DNA of 19,034 bases from a virus (taxonomy: Duplodnaviria > Heunggongvirae > Uroviricota > Caudoviricetes), in IMG/VR virus record IMGVR_UViG_2740892047_000005. One strand, 5' to 3'. Positions 1,547 through 14,786 of the stretch are shown here, in pieces. Each line of letters begins with the position of its first letter. Position 1 is the stretch's first letter. The position numbers and the translations under genes are program-made. The notes under the pieces are model-generated. The model had not been told where the DNA came from. It saw nothing but the letters and a program-made list of their open reading frames with translations, and made no database searches.

Positions 1547-1927
1547 TCAGTCAGCCCAACCTGATTTCGAGTTTATTTGGGTTTCTGACATTGTGTATTT
1601 CTTAATCGTGTCATCGTCAAAAAGAATAGTAAGTTCTTTTTTCGTACCGTTCGTTCCATTATGGAATAATCCATAGAATGGAATAAAAGTGGTGCCATTA
1701 ACTTTTACTTTTGCAAAGGCGTACTTCCAGATCTCGTTTCCACTGTCAGTATATGAAACAGCATCAGGAGAACCAAAGTAAGATTTAACCTCATTCTTGG
1801 TTGTTTTACCTTCCTGAAGTTTAGACTGGACACTAATTTCAGTTTCATTTTTGAGTTGCTGGTTGCCTGAAGAAGCACACCCAGCCAATAGAGATGCCAT
1901 CATGGCAGCGATTAGGATTTTTCTCAT
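1547..1927 (-). CDS. Lipoprotein (126 aa) with signal peptide and lipobox LLAGC; AT-rich moron between OL and cI (rexAB position)
   Basis: N-terminus MRKILIAAMMASLLAGC has a signal peptidase II lipobox. The mature part is S/T/N/K-rich and reminiscent of small BamE/OmlA-like lipoproteins (not verified). Lies 229 bp downstream of cI on the same strand, with a terminator after it. Confidence 0.8.
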   Translation of the reverse strand: MRKILIAAMMASLLAGCASSGNQQLKNETEISVQSKLQEGKTTKNEVKSYFGSPDAVSYTDSGNEIWKYAFAKVKVNGTTFIPFYGLFHNGTNGTKKELTILFDDDTIKKYTMSETQINSKSGWAD

Positions 1928-2156: not shown

Positions 2157-2849
2157 TTAACCATGCTTCCTGTACGTCTGCGGCATGCTTCCAATGACCT
2201 TACCGAATATGAACACCCGGTTCATCTCGTCTTTCTCGATCGGGTCCCACGGCGAGTAGCTCTTGTTATCAGAGATAACCAGCAGCTTATCCTTCATCAT
2301 TTGAAGACGTTTTACATGGGCAGTGTCGTCGTACAGAAACGCATAGATGCCATCACCGTCGAAAGATTTAACAGTGATATCAACGAACAGCAGGTCACCT
2401 GGTTCGATCGTCCCTGACATGCTGTCACCGCGCACGTTAATAATGCGGATATTTTCCGCCTTCCTGCCATCGAACATGTGACGAGCATCGTCAAACGAGT
2501 ACTCAACCGAGCGTAGAACTTCCACAAACTCACGGTTGATGACACCCGGTCCGGCACTGACTTCTATATCAAGAACGTCAATCTTGAAGTATTTTGAATG
2601 GCTGACAGCAGGCTTCCCTGATTGTTGACCGTCATTTCTCATCGGGCCTATGCCTGATGAGAGCCATTCTGTTCGAACACCCAATGCATTAGCTATTTCA
2701 ACAATTTTTGTTGAGCCGCGCGCGTTGCCGCTTGTCAGTCTCCAGATTGTGGGTTGAGCTACGCCAGACGCCTTTGCAAGAGCGCCTTGAGACATTCCAG
2801 ATTGTTCCATCGCTAGGTTTAAGCGATCAGCAAGAGTTTCTTTTTTCAT
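2157..2849 (-). CDS. cI: CI-type prophage repressor (N-terminal HTH + C-terminal S24/LexA-like autopeptidase), 230 aa
   Basis: HTH segment SQGALAKASGVAQPTIWRL. S24 motifs: Ala-Gly cleavage-site-like VSAGPG, catalytic Ser in RGDSMSG, Lys in HVKRL. Start set at ATG 2849 (MKKETLADRL...) because the upstream ATG at 2885 lies inside the operator array. The PRM-like promoter implies a near-leaderless mRNA, as for lambda cI. Confidence 0.88.
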   Translation of the reverse strand: MKKETLADRLNLAMEQSGMSQGALAKASGVAQPTIWRLTSGNARGSTKIVEIANALGVRTEWLSSGIGPMRNDGQQSGKPAVSHSKYFKIDVLDIEVSAGPGVINREFVEVLRSVEYSFDDARHMFDGRKAENIRIINVRGDSMSGTIEPGDLLFVDITVKSFDGDGIYAFLYDDTAHVKRLQMMKDKLLVISDNKSYSPWDPIEKDEMNRVFIFGKVIGSMPQTYRKHG

Positions 2850-4773: not shown

Positions 4774-5471
4774 AAAACATCGCCGCACAGATGATTAATT
4801 TTGACCGTGAGCAGATGCGCCGGATCGCCAACAACATGCCGGAACAGTACGACGAAAAGCCGCAGGTACAGCAGGTGGCGCAGATAATCAACGGTGTATT
4901 CAGCCAGTTACTGGCAACTTTCCCGGCTAGCCTGGCTAATCGTGACCAGAACGAACTGAACGAAATCCGCCGCCAGTGGGTTCTGGCTTTCCGGGAAAAC
5001 GGGATCACCACGATGGAACAGGTGAGCGCCGGAATGCGTATCGCCCGTCGGCAGAGTAGACCATTCCTGCCATCACCTGGGCAGTTTGTCGCCTGGTGCC
5101 GGGAAGAAGCATCCGTTAACGCCGGGCTGCCAAACGTCAGCGAGCTGGTTGATATGGTTTACGAGTATTGCCGGAAGCGTGGCCTGTATCCGGACGCAGA
5201 GTCTTATCCATGGAAATCAAACGCGCACTACTGGCTGGTTACCAACCTGTACCAGAACATGCGGGCCAATGCGCTGACTGACGCGGAATTACGGCGTAAG
5301 GCTGCCGATGAGCTGACCTGTATGACCGCGCGAATTAACCGTGGTGAGGCGATACCTGAACCAGTAAAACAACTTCCTGTCATGGGCGGTAGACCTCTAA
5401 ATCGTGCACAGTCTTTGGCGAAGATCGCAGAAATCAAAGCTAAGTTCGGACTGAAAGGAGCAAGTGTATGA
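4770..5471 (+). CDS. P: Replication protein P (DnaB helicase loader), 233 aa
   Basis: MKNIAAQMINFDREQMRRIANNMPEQYDEKPQVQQVAQIINGVFSQLL... matches lambda P essentially throughout (from memory). Start overlaps the O stop (ATGA). Confidence 0.95.
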   Translation: MKNIAAQMINFDREQMRRIANNMPEQYDEKPQVQQVAQIINGVFSQLLATFPASLANRDQNELNEIRRQWVLAFRENGITTMEQVSAGMRIARRQSRPFLPSPGQFVAWCREEASVNAGLPNVSELVDMVYEYCRKRGLYPDAESYPWKSNAHYWLVTNLYQNMRANALTDAELRRKAADELTCMTARINRGEAIPEPVKQLPVMGGRPLNRAQSLAKIAEIKAKFGLKGASV

Positions 5472-5620
5472 CGGGCAAAGAGGCAATTATTCATTGTTTG
5501 GGAATGCATAAGCGTTTCAATGCGCTAGACGTCGCTGCGACAACAGGAGTAACAATAACCAGCATAAATCAGGTGACTAGAGAGTCAAAATTTTCGTCAT
5601 TGATGGTTTGCTTCAGGTAA
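5468..5620 (+). pseudogene. ren: ren remnant: first ~35 codons of lambda-like Ren, then unrelated sequence and an early stop (50 aa)
   Basis: Hand translation from ATG 5468 (overlapping the P stop): MTGKEAIIHCLGMHKRFNALDVAATTGVTITSINQ then VTRESKFSSLMVCFR*. Lambda Ren starts MTGKEAIIHYLGTHNSFCAPDVAALTGATVTSINQAAAKMARAG... (from memory). Divergence coincides with the start of AT-rich DNA near 5573. Confidence 0.6.
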
Positions 5621-5818
5621 ATTAGCACTAAAAAAATACCTAGTTAGAAGTACCTCAATCTATATCTATTGTTATCAATGAGAGCCGGTAGAACTCGACG
5701 ATAAAGCTGGTACATCATCATCCTCAAACTTGTATAATCAGAGTCCTAAAACCGGCAATATAACTACGCTGTTGCTTCAGAATATAATGGTGAATCGTAT
5801 AATGATGTTATGAATATA

Positions 5819-6796
5819 TTAAATTGCAGGATCTTTTCCAACGGCAAGGAAAGGTTCTTGGTCTAGTGCAGTAAACGAAGCTTCGTTATTAAGCAAACGA
5901 ATAAAATATAATTTTTGTCTTTTGGTGGATAACTCAATTAACCCTGCTTGATTTATAATTATATTTCTTCCTAATATTGGGAAGTTTTGTATTAAACGCT
6001 GAATGTTAGCGATGGTTATAGTTCCGCTTTTTATTAGAGAACTGTTTGCTGTTGTAGCTAGTTTACGCATAAAATTTCTATTTTTATGCATATCATCAAA
6101 TATACCAAGTGGGTTTTGCAAGTTAGAAGTATCTAGGATATTCAATCCAATTATATGCGGTGTCGCTGTTGCTGCTAAATTATTAATTATTTGCTCGAGT
6201 CCATATACTCGCTCTAATAAGTTAATGTTTAAAGCATAGTATTTATTATTAAAATAAAAGAAATCAACATTTCCGTTTATATCAATACTGTCATGGTTAA
6301 CTTCGTCTAGTGTTCGTCCATTGGCAGAGAAATAGGATAGTCTTGTTTTTTTATGCAAAGATATTGGGTATTTATGTTGATAAACTACAACTCCATTACC
6401 TTGCCCATCGCAGAGATAGTATACAATTCCTTTAACAGAAGATAAGTCTTGCTGTTTGAAATCAAAATCAGGAGGGGTGTTATTAACTCCGAAATTAAGT
6501 ACATCTGGCATTTTTGCTAGAGCATCTGGGAGATGGTTTATTACATTATAATCATATTCGTAAACTTGTTTATCTCTATTTAGAAGGGAGGATACCAACG
6601 GCAAAAAGTTTTGACCAGCATTAGGGGCGATAACATCACGTTTAAGTGATTTGCTAAAAGATTGGGTTAATTTTTTTTCTGCACCAGGTTCTAATGCTAC
6701 TCGGTATATTTGTGTTATCCCTTTGTGTTCTGCAACGAAAAAGGCTTCACCAGAGATGTTGGCAGAATTTAAGATGTTATCTATTGCTGTAAACAT
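5819..6796 (-). CDS. Hypothetical 325-aa soluble protein, second gene of the AT-rich two-gene cassette; candidate defence effector (possibly KwaB/DUF4868-like, unverified)
   Basis: Intact ORF with RBS GAGGG 4 nt before ATG 6796. Starts 15 bp after the stop of the upstream membrane-protein gene on the same strand. No Walker A, no GS...DxD nucleotidyltransferase motif and no obvious nuclease motif seen by eye. N/I/L/K-rich, consistent with low-GC origin. Confidence 0.8.
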   Translation of the reverse strand: MFTAIDNILNSANISGEAFFVAEHKGITQIYRVALEPGAEKKLTQSFSKSLKRDVIAPNAGQNFLPLVSSLLNRDKQVYEYDYNVINHLPDALAKMPDVLNFGVNNTPPDFDFKQQDLSSVKGIVYYLCDGQGNGVVVYQHKYPISLHKKTRLSYFSANGRTLDEVNHDSIDINGNVDFFYFNNKYYALNINLLERVYGLEQIINNLAATATPHIIGLNILDTSNLQNPLGIFDDMHKNRNFMRKLATTANSSLIKSGTITIANIQRLIQNFPILGRNIIINQAGLIELSTKRQKLYFIRLLNNEASFTALDQEPFLAVGKDPAI

Positions 6797-6811
6797 AATG
6801 CCCTCATTATA

Positions 6812-7411
6812 TTAAACAATCTTTGCGAGACAAGTGTCATTATCTATTTTTATATATTTTATAGTGCTTTTATTATTTATTTCTCCACGACATATTATCA
6901 CAAATTCTTTTTTTCCGCGGTCGTTAATATTCGCTCTAAAAATTCTGAACCCTAATAGTGCAAGTGACGGATTTGAATAAAATCGATTTGTTTTAACATA
7001 AATCATTCCGATTGCAATTATCATTATTAATAGATTCAACATTGTTCGTTTGCTATTTACATCAGTAAAGACTAGTGGCATGACATAAGTTGTCAGGAAC
7101 TCTAAATGTTCATGGCTCTCGTTTTTTACGTCGGAAACAGTACATGCGACAGACCAACCAGAGTTAAATGATAAAAACAAATATAAAAATATAAAAAAAC
7201 CTGCCACCATCATTATAAAACTAAATAAAAAAACTATATTTTTGGGTGTGATTTTTGAAATGAATATAGCAAAGTCTTTATTGTTATAAGTTGAAATTAT
7301 AGTAAATATATTTTTATCATATGACATTATAAATAGAGAAACAAATAATAGCCATAGAGATAATATATATAGCGCATACTTTAAAGCTGTTCTATTTTTC
7401 ATGTTTTTCAT
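6812..7411 (-). CDS. Predicted multi-pass inner-membrane protein (about 4 TM helices), first gene of the AT-rich cassette; candidate sensor/membrane component (possibly KwaA-like, unverified)
   Basis: Hydrophobic segments ALKYALYILSLWLLFVSLFIMSY, IVFLFSFIMMVAGFFIFLYLFLSF, LEFLTTYVMPLVF, MLNLLIMIIAIGMIYV, then a ~55-aa charged C-terminal tail. Start uncertain: ATG 7411 (MKNMKNRT...), ATG 7402 or GTG 7426 (ORF track). Confidence 0.75.
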   Translation of the reverse strand: MKNMKNRTALKYALYILSLWLLFVSLFIMSYDKNIFTIISTYNNKDFAIFISKITPKNIVFLFSFIMMVAGFFIFLYLFLSFNSGWSVACTVSDVKNESHEHLEFLTTYVMPLVFTDVNSKRTMLNLLIMIIAIGMIYVKTNRFYSNPSLALLGFRIFRANINDRGKKEFVIICRGEINNKSTIKYIKIDNDTCLAKIV

Positions 7412-8362
7412 CTCTTGGGGAAACACCGTTTTGATACCGTTGCCAGCGAATATAACACTTTAATTAATTACGGTAAGTAACTTATAACAGTCAATAGATG
7501 TAAATAGAGATGGTGTGGAATCATTACTTGATGCTTTGGCACGCTACCGCCACAAACTCGTTGTGGTGAGTCTGTGGTATGTAGTCAAAACATAGATTTG
7601 CTGTTGTAATGTTACACCTGCATGGGTAACAAAATCTAGTGCGATACACATAGCCACTGACCATCTATACTGGTTTAATATACAGCATTTTATGACGATT
7701 CTCAATTATGAAACTAACTATTTTACAACCAGTTATGGATATCTATGCTTTTATGTACTAAAAATTCTTTAGTTACAGATGTATTGATGACGAGAAATTG
7801 CTAAAGCAAGATGAGTAAGGAACTAAATCAATAAAGTGGGGGCGGGGGGAGTTCGAGTGGCTAGGAGCATAGCGCTTGATTACTTTTGGTGGTTGAAAAA
7901 TGTTCGGTTGGGTGTCGCTAGGTGACTAATAGCTAAATTGGGAGATATACATATATAATATGAAATAAATCCCCACTTAATGCTTGTGAAATATTTATGT
8001 GACAAGCGGGTGTTCTTATTGATATTAAAATTCAATAACAGTGAGTTTTTATTCTTTTCTAAGTTTTGTAAATTGTTCTCACAGAGAAGGTTTAATTGTA
8101 TGTGCCTATATTTTTTTCTAGTGAATATAATGTCGGAATATATTAATATTGGCATATTCAGCAATGACTTCAAATATTCTTGATTTTCGATAATCAACTC
8201 GCCATAATCTCGTTGCTGTCGGCCTGAACATCCGGCGGTGGGGTTGCGCTAAACGGGGACGTTTATGCGCACACACAATCCAAACTCTCTTCTCCCTTCA
8301 CAGATGCAGAAATGCACCTGCGATTTTTTGTATTCTGCGTTTTACCTCTACGGAGGTGAAGC

Positions 8363-10425: not shown

Positions 10426-11523
10426 TTAGAACTGGTAAACCAGACCTACAGCAACGATGTCATCAGTGCTTACACCGAGTGCTTTAGTGAAGTCATTTTT
10501 GTCAAGCAGGTTGATTTTGTAATCAACGAAAGTAGACATATTTTTGTTGAAGTAATAGGTTGCACCTACATCAACATATTTGACTAAGTCCTGATCGCCC
10601 CATACTCCAAGATCCTTACCTTTAGATTGCAGGTAAGCAACGGACGGACGCAGACCGAAATCGAACTGATATTGTGCAACAGCTTCGAAGTTTTGAGCTT
10701 TATTAGCAACGAAGTGATCAGCAAATACAGTCATATTCTGGGTTTCAGAATAGGTAGTGGCCAGGTAAATGTTGTTAGCGTCATATTTCAGACCTGCGGC
10801 CCAAACTTCTGCATTTTTACCGGAAGCAAATACTTCAGGAAGAACTTTCCCTGCATTAACTTGAGTGTCGGTACGATCAGATTTTGCATAAGTTGCACCG
10901 ATACCGAATCCTTCGTATTCATAGGTAGCAGAGAAACCGAAGCCATCACCGTTACCTTCGGTGTAGTTATCGAAATCGCTACGATCGTTTTTGCCTTGGT
11001 ACTGAGCAGCAAAGTTCAGACCATCAACCAGGCCAAAGAAGTCGTTGTTACGATAGGTTGCAACACCAGTGGTGCGACCAGTCATGAACACATCTGTTTG
11101 GGTCCAGGTATCGCCACCGAATTCTGGCAGAACGTCAGTCCACGCACCGATGTCGTATGCTACACCGTAGTTACGGCCGTAATCGATGGAGCCGTAGTCA
11201 CCGAATTTCAGGCCAGCGAAGGCAAGACGGGTTTTATCTTTGGAGGAACCTTGAGATTCAGCGCGGTTGCCTTTGAATTCATATTCCCACTGACCGAAAC
11301 CAGTCAGTTGATCGTTGATTTGGGTTTCACCTTTGAAGCCAAGACGGGCATAAGTAGTATCACCATCATCTGCATCATTAGAGGAGAAGTAGTGCTTAGC
11401 ATTAACTTTCCCGTACAGATCCAGCTTGTTACTGTCTTTATTATAAATTTCAGCTGCCTGAGCAGACATCGCCATCAGTACTGATGCAGCTACAGCAGAA
11501 ATTGCCACTGTTAATTTTTTCAT
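10426..11523 (-). CDS. nmpC: Outer-membrane general porin of the OmpC/OmpF/NmpC family, 365 aa, intact
   Basis: Signal peptide [23 protein letters not shown], then [24 protein letters not shown]... and C-terminal ...VAVGLVYQF (terminal Phe typical of beta-barrel OMPs). Convergent to Q, between Q and the lysis cassette, as nmpC is in DLP12. Confidence 0.93.
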
Positions 11524-12809: not shown

Positions 12810-13243
12810 GCAGAGTAACCGCGATTATCTCCGCTCTGGTTATCTGCATCATCGTCTGCCTGTCATTGGCTGTTAATCATTACCGTGATAACGCCATGAC
12901 CTACAAAGAACAGCGCGACAAAGCCACATCCATCATCGCTGACATGCAGAAGCGTCAACGTGACGTAGCAGAACTCGATGCCAGATATACAAAGGAGCTT
13001 GCTGATGCTAACGCGACTATCGAAAGTCTCCGTGATGATGTTTCTGCTGGGCGTAAGCGGCTGCAAGTCGCCGCCTCCTGTGCAAAGTCAAAGACCGGAG
13101 CCAGCAGCATGGGCGATGGAGAAAGCCCAAGACTTACAGCAGATGCTGAACTCAATTATTACCGTCTCCGAAGTGGAATCGACAGGATAACCGCGCAGGT
13201 TAACTACCTGCAGGAGTACATCAGGACGCAATGTCTGAAATAA
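12806..13243 (+). CDS. Spanin inner-membrane subunit Rz (i-spanin), 145 aa
   Basis: ATG 12806 overlapping the endolysin stop (ATGA). N-terminal [20 protein letters not shown], then a coiled-coil-like charged periplasmic domain. Position after the endolysin. Confidence 0.82.
13005..13190 (+). CDS. Spanin outer-membrane lipoprotein subunit Rz1 (o-spanin), embedded in the +1 frame of Rz, 61 aa
   Basis: ATG 13005 with strong SD AAAGGAG (12991-12997). [20 protein letters not shown] signal plus lipobox, followed by Pro-rich [13 protein letters not shown]. Entirely inside Rz in another frame, the classic Rz/Rz1 arrangement. Confidence 0.72.
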
Positions 13244-13274
13244 TTTTTTTGCAAATCACAAAGTCCATTTAATG

Positions 13275-13333
13275 AGCCTCGCGATGCGGGGCTTTTTTGC
13301 AATAAATGCGTACCGCAACGCATGTTTTTTTTT
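13275..13333 (+). terminator. Two tandem rho-independent terminators downstream of the lysis cassette
   Basis: T1: agcctcgc-gatg-cggggct followed by tttttt (13275-13298). T2: atgcgt-accgca-acgcat followed by g + T9 (13306-13333). Confidence 0.5.
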
Positions 13334-13448
13334 ACACCGAACCTGCCCCTTTGGAATGGGCCTTTGAGGATACCAGTTAGTGCTGGCGAGCCTCGGTGGG
13401 CTGGTTTCCTGTGCGGCAAAGGTTCATTTCAAATGGTAGGTAAACGTT

Positions 13449-13970
13449 ATGAATATCGTGCCACTTAATTACAAAGGTGAAATTGTCAGTTTCAACACTG
13501 ATGGTTGGATCAACGTCACAGGTGTTGCTGAGAGATTTGGGAAACGCATTGATAACTGGATGCGTTTGGCAGAAACGCTTGAATACGTTCGTGCTTTAGA
13601 CGAAGCGTTGACCGGGAAAGAATCTCAAATTTTACATCCCTCACAATCGAGGTATGTAAAAACCAGCAAGGCACGAAAGGACAGGGGTGGTGGTACGTGG
13701 CTACATCCAAAACTTTCAGTTGCATTTGCCCGTTGGTGTGATGCTCGTTTTGCTGTGTGGTGCGACCTGCACATTGATAGTCTGCTTCGCGGTGAACTGA
13801 CTGAGCAGCAGAAATATGAGCAAGCATGTCGCATTCGCGATGACCGGAAATCAAAAGCCAGCAATGGGGCAAGAGAGATGGCTCGCTGGCGATGGGATAA
13901 GCCGGTTATTGAAGCAAATGTTGAGTACTGGCGCGAGCAACTGCAGTTGACTCTCGATATCGCGTGCTGA
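13449..13970 (+). CDS. KilA-N domain protein (antirepressor-like N-terminal DNA-binding domain), 173 aa
   Basis: N-terminal region NYKGEIVSFNTDGWINVTGVAERFGKRIDNWMRL...WLHPKLSVAFARWCD fits the KilA-N/APSES-like pattern as I recall it; not verified by HMM. Confidence 0.7.
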   Translation: MNIVPLNYKGEIVSFNTDGWINVTGVAERFGKRIDNWMRLAETLEYVRALDEALTGKESQILHPSQSRYVKTSKARKDRGGGTWLHPKLSVAFARWCDARFAVWCDLHIDSLLRGELTEQQKYEQACRIRDDRKSKASNGAREMARWRWDKPVIEANVEYWREQLQLTLDIAC

Positions 13971-14319
13971 TGGCAAACGCAAAACTGCGTTATCGAAAAA
14001 ATCAAAGCATTACTAGAACTGAGCAACGGCTATCCATTACAAAGCCCATCTACGGGTGGGCTTGATAATGGCTTATACCCTGCACGGGATAACTTAACTG
14101 ATATCCCTTTTAACGGATAAAGGCATTCAAGCCTGACACATCATGCGCTGTATCGTCGCCGTATTCCCGTATTAACAGAGACCGTAGCCCGACGGGGAAC
14201 TCCTTCTGCGCGAGTGTGCGGGAATAATCAAAAACGATGCACACCGGGGTTACCGGGTACACATATTTCATCATGCCAGCGAGTCCGGTTCTGGCACGGA
14301 AGAAACCGGACGTTATGAT

Positions 14320-14730
14320 TTAGTGCGGAAATATTTGTGTAGTGTTCTGAATGTTCTCAGTAAAGAGTAATGAATTATCAAAGGTATAGTAATACCTTTT
14401 GTTTTCGTGGATATTTGTAATCCATCTGAAAACCCCTGCTGTAGCAAGATTTTTTCTGTATTCGTAAAATGATAACTCTCCTGATTTGAATCCTTTTAAG
14501 GTGGCTTCTATAAGGCATTTATTTTTTGAAAATCTTACATTTACAACCTTACCCTGTCCTTTTATTAAAACCGTATTATCGTTTTCAAGAACAAGATGAA
14601 TATTCTCTGTGGCTAAATAGTAAATGTAATGTGAGACATTGTGACGTTTTAGTTCAGAATAAAACCAGTGATAGTTTAAATTATTTCGCACTTTATCGAA
14701 TATTTGTTTAAAAATGGCAACCTGAGCCAT
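14320..14730 (-). CDS. ybcV: YbcV-like protein (DUF1398 family), 136 aa, AT-rich
   Basis: From ATG 14730 (SD GGAAGG 7 nt upstream): [58 protein letters not shown]... matches DLP12 YbcV as I recall it. ORF track starts 5 codons earlier at 14745, with no SD. Confidence 0.75.
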
Positions 14731-14786
14731 TGTAGTACCTTCCATGTGATATGAGGGGCGTAGTCTGCACGATTATCTAAATTGCT

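Follow-up and report, generated by a model that had tools for sequence, protein, structure and literature searches.

A probable Kiwa operon carried as cargo by a lambdoid prophage, with a conserved LexA-box-like sequence upstream

Background

Kiwa is an anti-phage system of two genes, described among others for Escherichia coli O55:H7 RM12579, where kwaA is followed by kwaB and the proteins have been solved (PDB 9mrg, 9mrr, 9mrx, 9mtn and 9nyu; PMC11785009). In characterised Kiwa, KwaA has four transmembrane helices and a beta-barrel built from the first intracellular loop (ICL1) and the C-terminus, and KwaB joins a Rossmann-like domain to a DUF4868 domain (PMC11785009). Work on alleles other than the one studied here has found that both genes are needed for phage protection, that conjugation is reduced and that the proteins assemble into a membrane supercomplex; KwaB is inhibited by the lambda protein Gam, for which RecBCD is a competitor (PMC11785009). 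Infected cells with the ECOR or O55:H7 systems are reported to survive at high multiplicity of infection while phage DNA replication is reduced; experimentally tested systems include ECOR8, ECOR12, ECOR49, D9 and one from Ralstonia. Kiwa of any type has been reported in 1,713 RefSeq E. coli genomes (PMC11785009). Here we analyse a stretch of 19,034 nucleotides from a tailed phage (IMG/VR record IMGVR_UViG_2740892047_000005), referred to as the window, in which two AT-rich genes very probably form a complete Kiwa operon, kwaA and then kwaB, carried as prophage cargo by a lambdoid phage. The gene order is that of the O55:H7 system and the sizes are close (196 against 195 aa for KwaA, 325 against 315 aa for KwaB).

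Identity of the two genes

A sequence-only reading of the window had guessed at Kiwa, with a tetraspanin KwaA and a KwaB of the DUF4868 family, and had suggested hidden Markov model searches (Pfam, PADLOC, and the KwaA and KwaB/DUF4868 profiles) as a check. Both proteins match these profiles, and the fold searches described below agree. KwaA matches PADLOC PDLC00220 at E=5.4e-88 over profile positions 1-197 of 198 and passes the NCBIfam KwaA equivalog NF041622 (182 bits, cut-off 100), while its homologues bear a precomputed PF28043 (KwaA) assignment. KwaB matches PDLC00232 over its full length (E=7.4e-149) and contains Pfam PF16162 (KwaB/DUF4868) in residues 133-306, at 96.3 bits against a cut-off of 26.3. 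Searches of the PDB give the same picture: from single sequences, KwaB matches Kiwa KwaB at 1e-8 and KwaA matches KwaA at 1.6e-18, and from family profiles the matches extend over the full length, to KwaB at E=1.4e-15 (31 homologues) and to KwaA 9mrg at E=3e-29 (35 homologues, alignment A2). PHROGs already includes both proteins, as families without known function.

The two co-oriented minus-strand genes 15 bp apart that had been recognised at the outset correspond to open reading frames (ORFs) at 5819-6796 and 6812-7426, both of which we confirm. For the latter a GTG start and a length of 204 aa had been given; the ORF does exist, but the true start of kwaA is the ATG at 7402. We place it there because this ATG is the start in all 34 homologues of alignment A2, because the Prokaryotic Genome Annotation Pipeline (PGAP) calls the same start in identical loci, and because in relatives the upstream in-frame ATG is directly followed by a stop codon. 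The short spacer with its Shine-Dalgarno sequence (Table 1) reads as consistent with a single operon. Both genes are genuine and under strong purifying selection: in comparison with five orthologues the non-synonymous divergence (dN) is 0.10 to 0.14 whereas the synonymous divergence (dS) is saturated.

Predicted structures and divergence from the solved system

The AlphaFold2 (AF2) model of KwaA, with a predicted local distance difference test (pLDDT) score of 72, contains helices at residues 5-27, 53-78, 97-112 and 118-138 and strands at 87-94 and 152-195. The four helices bear out the earlier estimate of about four transmembrane segments; hydropathy alone yields three strong ones. What had been taken for a charged C-terminal tail turns out to be a predicted beta-strand domain, formed by the region 152-195 together with 87-94, and in the model this domain matches the cytoplasmic beta-barrel of solved KwaA. 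The seven top Foldseek matches of the KwaA model are all KwaA chains (among them 9mrx_A at a template modelling (TM) score of 0.79, 9mrg and 9mrr), with TM scores of 0.68 to 0.80 at 25 to 28% identity.

A structure prediction and fold search had also been proposed for the 325-aa protein, and here the solved KwaB chains are retrieved. The six top matches of the AF2 model of KwaB (pLDDT 84) are all KwaB chains (9nyu, 9mtn and 9mrx), at TM scores of 0.67 to 0.75 and E values of about 1e-14 over 303 to 309 aligned columns, with 19 to 20% identity; the next match has E=0.2. The two-domain fold, with an N-terminal Rossmann-like and a C-terminal DUF4868 domain, is present in the model. The predicted features shared with the O55:H7 system are thus four transmembrane helices plus a cytoplasmic beta-barrel in KwaA and an alpha/beta domain plus DUF4868 in KwaB, at TM scores of 0.69 to 0.80 between models and solved chains.

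A number of observations weigh against simply equating this operon with the characterised one. Identity to the solved O55:H7 proteins is low, at 20% for KwaB and 26-27% for KwaA. KwaB also fails the NCBIfam equivalog NF041623 (138.5 bits, cut-off 200), which is why RefSeq names it 'KwaB-like domain-containing protein'; this shortfall is a matter of subfamily divergence and not of a missing domain. In a pairwise and profile alignment, whose loop register is uncertain at 20% identity, the O55:H7 DNA-contact sites N134, R142, R167, D169, K187 and R233 of KwaB fall on H141, K149, D172, N174, N192 and R244; one published contact out of six is identical (R233, here R244) and R142 is conservatively replaced by K149. 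The KwaA interface residues K75, N77, Q79 and D80 become S, N, G and W, leaving only N77 in place. By these alignments, most of the DNA-contact residues and of the alignable interface residues appear to differ between the two systems, which may leave room for differences in specificity from characterised Kiwa.

It might be argued from these differences that the operon encodes a Kiwa homologue that works in another way, with another trigger, another effector action of KwaB, or a role as an abortive infection or superinfection-exclusion module directed at lambdoid competitors. The low identity to the solved proteins (20-27%) and the poorly conserved contact residues would fit such a reading, as would the assignment to other PADLOC subfamilies (PDLC00232/00220 here, PDLC00233/00219 for O55:H7) and the fact that five tested Kiwa systems already vary in phage specificity (PMC11785009). 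Nonetheless we consider a different mechanism rather improbable, since both predicted folds are kept over their full length at the TM scores given above, gene order and sizes are the same, and the two sets of subfamilies are each other's second-best profile match. These profile matches place the present allele in a subfamily that is sister to that of the solved O55:H7 proteins. Furthermore, co-evolving KwaA-KwaB interfaces are expected to differ between clades without a change of mechanism. A complete Kiwa operon of the ordinary kind remains our reading of the two genes.

Distribution and previous annotation

Four of 5,426 complete E. coli genomes contain this 2.9-kb locus at 99.7 to 99.8% identity. 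One IMG/VR contig represents the same prophage, and its copy and the four E. coli copies are 99 to 100% identical. In the four RefSeq genomes the locus is annotated as 'anti-phage protein KwaA' and 'Kiwa anti-phage protein KwaB-like'. The system is therefore known, with annotated copies in public genomes, and the alternative raised in the sequence-only reading, that the pair could be something undescribed, finds no support, given the Kiwa annotation of an identical locus. Weaker blastn matches to the cassette, at 60 to 80% identity, are found in 29 further E. coli genomes, about 18 of which cover more than half of it.

Relatives with 80 to 85% protein identity occur in Klebsiella, Salmonella, Enterobacter, Citrobacter, Serratia and Erwinia, and those with 52 to 62% in Aeromonas, Pseudomonas and others. 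In viral sequences, a tblastn search with the present KwaB found it in none of 50,697 GenBank phage records, and 14 IMG/VR prophage contigs carry Kiwa of the clade with at least 80% identity. Kiwa of the O55:H7 type, sought for a comparison of upstream regions, was not found in viral contigs.

Two groups of relatives are useful for comparison. Loci L006-L015 (Klebsiella aerogenes, Salmonella Typhimurium, Enterobacter, Serratia and Erwinia) encode KwaA and KwaB that are 80 to 85% identical to the present proteins, and at the nucleotide level they are about 75% identical in the coding region and 52 to 60% in the leader. The second group consists of E. coli E24377A and the 52-62% relatives (Aeromonas, Pseudomonas), which fall in the same PADLOC subfamily range and share the gene order at about 65% nucleotide identity. 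In E24377A, kwaA lies 52 bp after a type I restriction gene in a mobilisable defence island, not in a prophage. The E24377A locus (L002, 6988-14579; 62% clade) directly follows a type I restriction-modification operon and has ankyrin-repeat genes and a relaxase for neighbours.

Position in the prophage

The lambda/DLP12-like backbone recognised earlier is confirmed as a lambdoid context. Before the cassette lie exo, bet, gam, kil, the CI-like repressor, a cro-like gene, ydaT, O and P; after it follow ybcN, ninE, ybcO, rusA, ylcG, quuD and a porin gene, and then the lysis genes. In a near-identical genome the prophage spans from intD to the tail fibres without obvious defects and adjoins ompT and nfrA.

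An AT-rich insertion holding the two genes had been described; it is AT-rich indeed, but the island exceeds the genes. Homology to the lambdoid phage PhiR26_1 (blastn) stops at 5573 and restarts at 8180, and these junctions define the island, which includes about 780 bp of unannotated DNA upstream of kwaA. The GC content drops to 0.27-0.36 between approximately 5600 and 8300, against 0.50-0.57 in the flanks; it amounts to 0.27 for kwaA, 0.33 for kwaB, 0.32 for the island and 0.48 for the remainder of the window. The filler DNA at 7706-8179 and 5574-5818 has no match in E. coli genomes beyond the four carriers, in plasmids or in phages. A TTG-initiated ORF at 7880-8197 (105 aa) was rejected as a gene: it belongs to no Pfam, NCBIfam or PADLOC family and crosses the island junction.

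The left junction cuts ren, as read from a comparison with Ren of PhiR26_1 and with the ren annotation in related phages. The segment at the right junction, which E. coli prophages share in their thousands, includes a terminator-like hairpin at 8305-8322. PhiR26_1 has two copies of the segment (L003, 3566-3737 and 5501-5672), which flank part of the cargo of that phage, and the segment looks like a recombination linker for the exchange of cargo at the ren/nin hotspot.

The same site is used elsewhere. The Klebsiella and Salmonella copies (83-84%) and the Enterobacter copy (82%) also lie with the O/P replication genes on one side and the nin/Q genes on the other, antisense to early transcription, so that Kiwa appears as recurrent cargo at a known variable site. 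Neighbouring cargo differs in Klebsiella and Salmonella, for instance by a dinI with its own LexA box; the Serratia neighbours are not phage-like and those in Erwinia are mostly unannotated. In Escherichia phage PhiR26_1 the place between P/ren and ybcN/ninB is taken by PD-lambda-1, an unrelated single-gene defence which, like Kiwa here, is encoded on the strand opposite to phage early transcription; ren is intact in that phage whereas it is cut here. We conclude that the Kiwa cassette is, with high probability, a self-transcribed 'moron' that runs antisense to the early-right operon, in a lambdoid prophage that appears intact.

This antisense orientation could also be that of an inactive relic, a horizontally acquired cassette that has lost its expression or function in this prophage, and the rarity of the cassette (four of 5,426 complete genomes), the unannotated filler on both sides and the damage done to ren by the insertion are in line with it. 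We regard such a relic as very improbable given the state of the genes: neither ORF is broken or shortened when set against 30-35 homologues, dN/dS lies well below 1, the Shine-Dalgarno sequences have been kept, as have the promoter-like site and the conserved leader, and the four E. coli copies and the IMG/VR copy are nearly identical to one another.

Table 1. Features of the Kiwa locus and its junctions (positions in the window).
Feature	Position	Strand	Description
ren'	5468..5620	+	Lambda-type ren cut after codon 35 by the left island junction, then 15 unrelated codons
AT-rich cargo island	5574..8179		2.6 kb, GC 0.32, between replication and nin modules
kwaB	5819..6796	-	325 aa, ATG start; soluble; N-terminal alpha/beta domain and C-terminal DUF4868
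kwaA-kwaB spacer	6797..6811	-	15 bp; GAGGG Shine-Dalgarno 4 nt 5' of the kwaB ATG (sequence reading)
kwaA	6812..7402	-	196 aa; inner-membrane protein with four predicted transmembrane helices and a cytoplasmic beta-strand domain
Putative kwaA leader	7403..7669	-	About 270 nt, conserved (locus alignments)
LexA (SOS) box-like palindrome	7668..7687	-	TGCTGTATATTAAACCAGTA; motif, position weight matrix, conservation
Sigma-70 promoter-like site	7677..7705	-	TTGAGA-17-TATATT, toward kwaA; consensus scan 10/12
Module-boundary segment at right junction	8180..8351	+	About 170 bp; begins TTGATTTTCGATAATCAA; promoter-like TTGATT-17-CATAAT

A LexA-like box upstream of kwaA

In an alignment of orthologous loci, whose coding DNA agrees at only about 75% of positions and is saturated at synonymous sites, conservation begins abruptly about 290 nt before kwaA and extends to the start codon. 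At its far end lies the palindrome TGCTGTATATTAAACCAGTA, which agrees at 15 of 20 positions with the LexA-box consensus TACTGTATATATATACAGTA (core CTGT-N8-ACAG) as given in PMC8072944. No other sequence in the window matches CTGTW8NCAG, for which the expected number is 0.03. Scored with a position weight matrix (PWM), the box reaches 24.3 bits, compared to a median of 21.0 for the training sites; the runner-up in the 19-kb window has 8.2. The -10 hexamer TATATT (7677-7682) of the promoter-like site falls inside the box, with the -35 hexamer TTGAGA at 7700-7705.

All loci of the clade with at least 80% identity, 20-odd in total, have the box at -270 to -287 from kwaA; among them are L006-L015, which share the leader blocks as well. 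To collect the loci, only protein homology was used, in genomes of five genera and in 14 IMG/VR contigs; for L016-L028, fetched by a pattern that requires two leader blocks, the protein-based retrieval gave the same loci and, in addition, a variant. The collection includes Serratia, whose Kiwa has no phage-like neighbours. No such box was found upstream of the 52-62% relatives, and E24377A and these relatives, unlike the present allele, also have no conserved leader. The Klebsiella and Salmonella loci contain a second, separate box 19 bp from the divergent dinI; a LexA box at the dinI of Gifsy has been published (PMC8072944). A scan of 100,044 species genomes located the leader motif beside no other gene: its 13 matches comprise 12 chance matches without kwaA and one already known Enterobacter locus. 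Among the papers searched, none links Kiwa with LexA, and the conserved leader with its LexA box may be the sole potentially new element of the locus.

From this conserved noncoding sequence, with a box overlapping a promoter-like -10, we infer that Kiwa of the sub-clade with at least 80% identity might be transcribed from about 270 nt upstream, repressed by LexA and inducible by SOS; for and against seem to us evenly balanced. Part of the balance lies on the negative side. The PWM rests on an informal set of E. coli LexA sites, the kwaA promoter is only a match to a consensus, and the leader, discussed below, performs poorly in structural tests.

The leader contains the invariant blocks GTTTGTGGCGGTAGCGTG (within 7538-7556) and CCATCTCT (7506-7513) as well as AGAGATG in the Shine-Dalgarno region (7409-7415). 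CATCTCT, in the block at 7506-7513, is the exact complement of AGAGATG, the Shine-Dalgarno region of kwaA. RNAalifold proposes four helices, including a 7-bp anti-Shine-Dalgarno helix, and the single-sequence minimum free energy structure pairs the same blocks. Covariation over all four helices is, however, not above that of shuffled alignments (two double-change pairs where 0.7 would be expected, a count that 65 of 500 shuffles attain), and both sides of the anti-Shine-Dalgarno pairing are invariant. The leader folds no better than shuffles either (z = -1.3), and Rfam gives no family match in the island at E values up to 1. Structural support is weak, and a structured leader RNA is only a hypothesis; that the leader additionally limits translation, by masking the kwaA ribosome-binding site, we consider unlikely. 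Two small ORFs in the leader (46 and 53 aa) were rejected as genes, being not conserved in the orthologous loci.

These results could instead suggest that the conserved region serves the recombination or attachment of the cassette, or binds another regulator, and is not a LexA promoter with a leader. The failure of the RNA structure in covariation, in folding energy and in Rfam points in this direction, together with the long distance of about 270 nt from box to start codon and the invariant 18-mer GTTTGTGGCGGTAGCGTG, which has no assigned role. We take this as a real possibility, somewhat short of probable. It leaves unexplained why the box scores like bona fide LexA sites, why it overlaps a -10 hexamer directed at kwaA, why the conservation is confined to the stretch from box to start codon, as for a promoter with a transcribed leader, and why the motif never occurs beside other genes. 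The length of the leader has a counterpart among SOS genes. In tisB a long 5' untranslated region limits translation. This regulatory analogue (tisB/istR-1) encodes a small membrane protein under LexA control, the distance between LexA box and ATG being 236 bp in Salmonella (PMC8072944), and it has no sequence or protein relationship to the present locus.

Proposed mechanism

The steps that follow are transferred by homology from the characterised E. coli systems (PMC11785009). Tetramers of KwaA in the inner membrane would bind KwaB dimers via the cytoplasmic beta-barrel of KwaA and so build a large membrane array. The array would sense membrane distortion as caused by phage attachment, DNA ejection or conjugation, and KwaB would then bind the incoming DNA through DUF4868. 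Binding would bring replication forks, and with them late transcription, to a halt; the cell would survive.

The prophage has a gam gene of its own, at 490-786 on the minus strand, encoding 98 aa; we take the product to be nearly identical to lambda GamS. One prophage thus carries both Kiwa and a potential anti-Kiwa protein. Its CI-like repressor (2157-2849, minus strand) combines HTH_3 with Peptidase_S24 and is of the RecA-cleavable type. Because of this S24 autocleavage domain, prophage induction and the putative kwaA promoter would share the SOS signal.

Tentatively, the sub-clade, which belongs to Enterobacterales and travels mostly in prophages, might then be an SOS-inducible form of Kiwa, in which a LexA promoter is combined with a pairing of CCAUCUCU in the leader to the ribosome-binding site and in which the prophage Gam provides self-immunity; we put forward this combined scheme as possible but rather doubtful. 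In resting lysogens, LexA repression and the leader would hold down the amount of membrane array. Once SOS is triggered, whether by DNA damage, by phage attack or by induction of the prophage, more of the Kiwa array would be made, and Gam would serve as built-in self-immunity of the prophage against its own Kiwa during its own induction.

Other cargo-like genes in the window

Apart from Kiwa, PADLOC detects no other defence system among the cargo-like ORFs of the window. A BamE-like lipoprotein (1547-1927, minus strand) stays just under the Pfam cut-off; a porin (10426-11523, minus strand) is a full-length match to Porin_1 (E=1e-156); and a KilA-N protein (13449-13970, plus strand) and a DUF1398 protein (14320-14745, minus strand) are likewise cargo-like. 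These four genes lie in or near AT-rich patches and none belongs convincingly to a PADLOC defence family. The region 12923-14034, from the end of Rz through the KilA-N gene, does not align to the otherwise 99% identical prophage of E. coli DETEC-P622, and the 2.2 kb after 14034 are only 94% identical to it, which suggests a second mosaic replacement in the late region.

Conclusions

Summarizing, the system itself adds no new biology, since PADLOC and PGAP already call Kiwa here. It may be useful for comparison: a subfamily that is only 20-27% identical to solved Kiwa offers a good test of how general the mechanism and the inhibition by Gam are. The locus also illustrates the swapping of cargo at the P/ren-nin hotspot, with a conserved boundary segment at one of the junctions. 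If the reading of the upstream region is true, the LexA-box leader would place a defence that senses the membrane under the control of the DNA-damage response, and the coexistence of a Gam-encoding, SOS-inducible prophage with its own Kiwa would then be a puzzle in itself.

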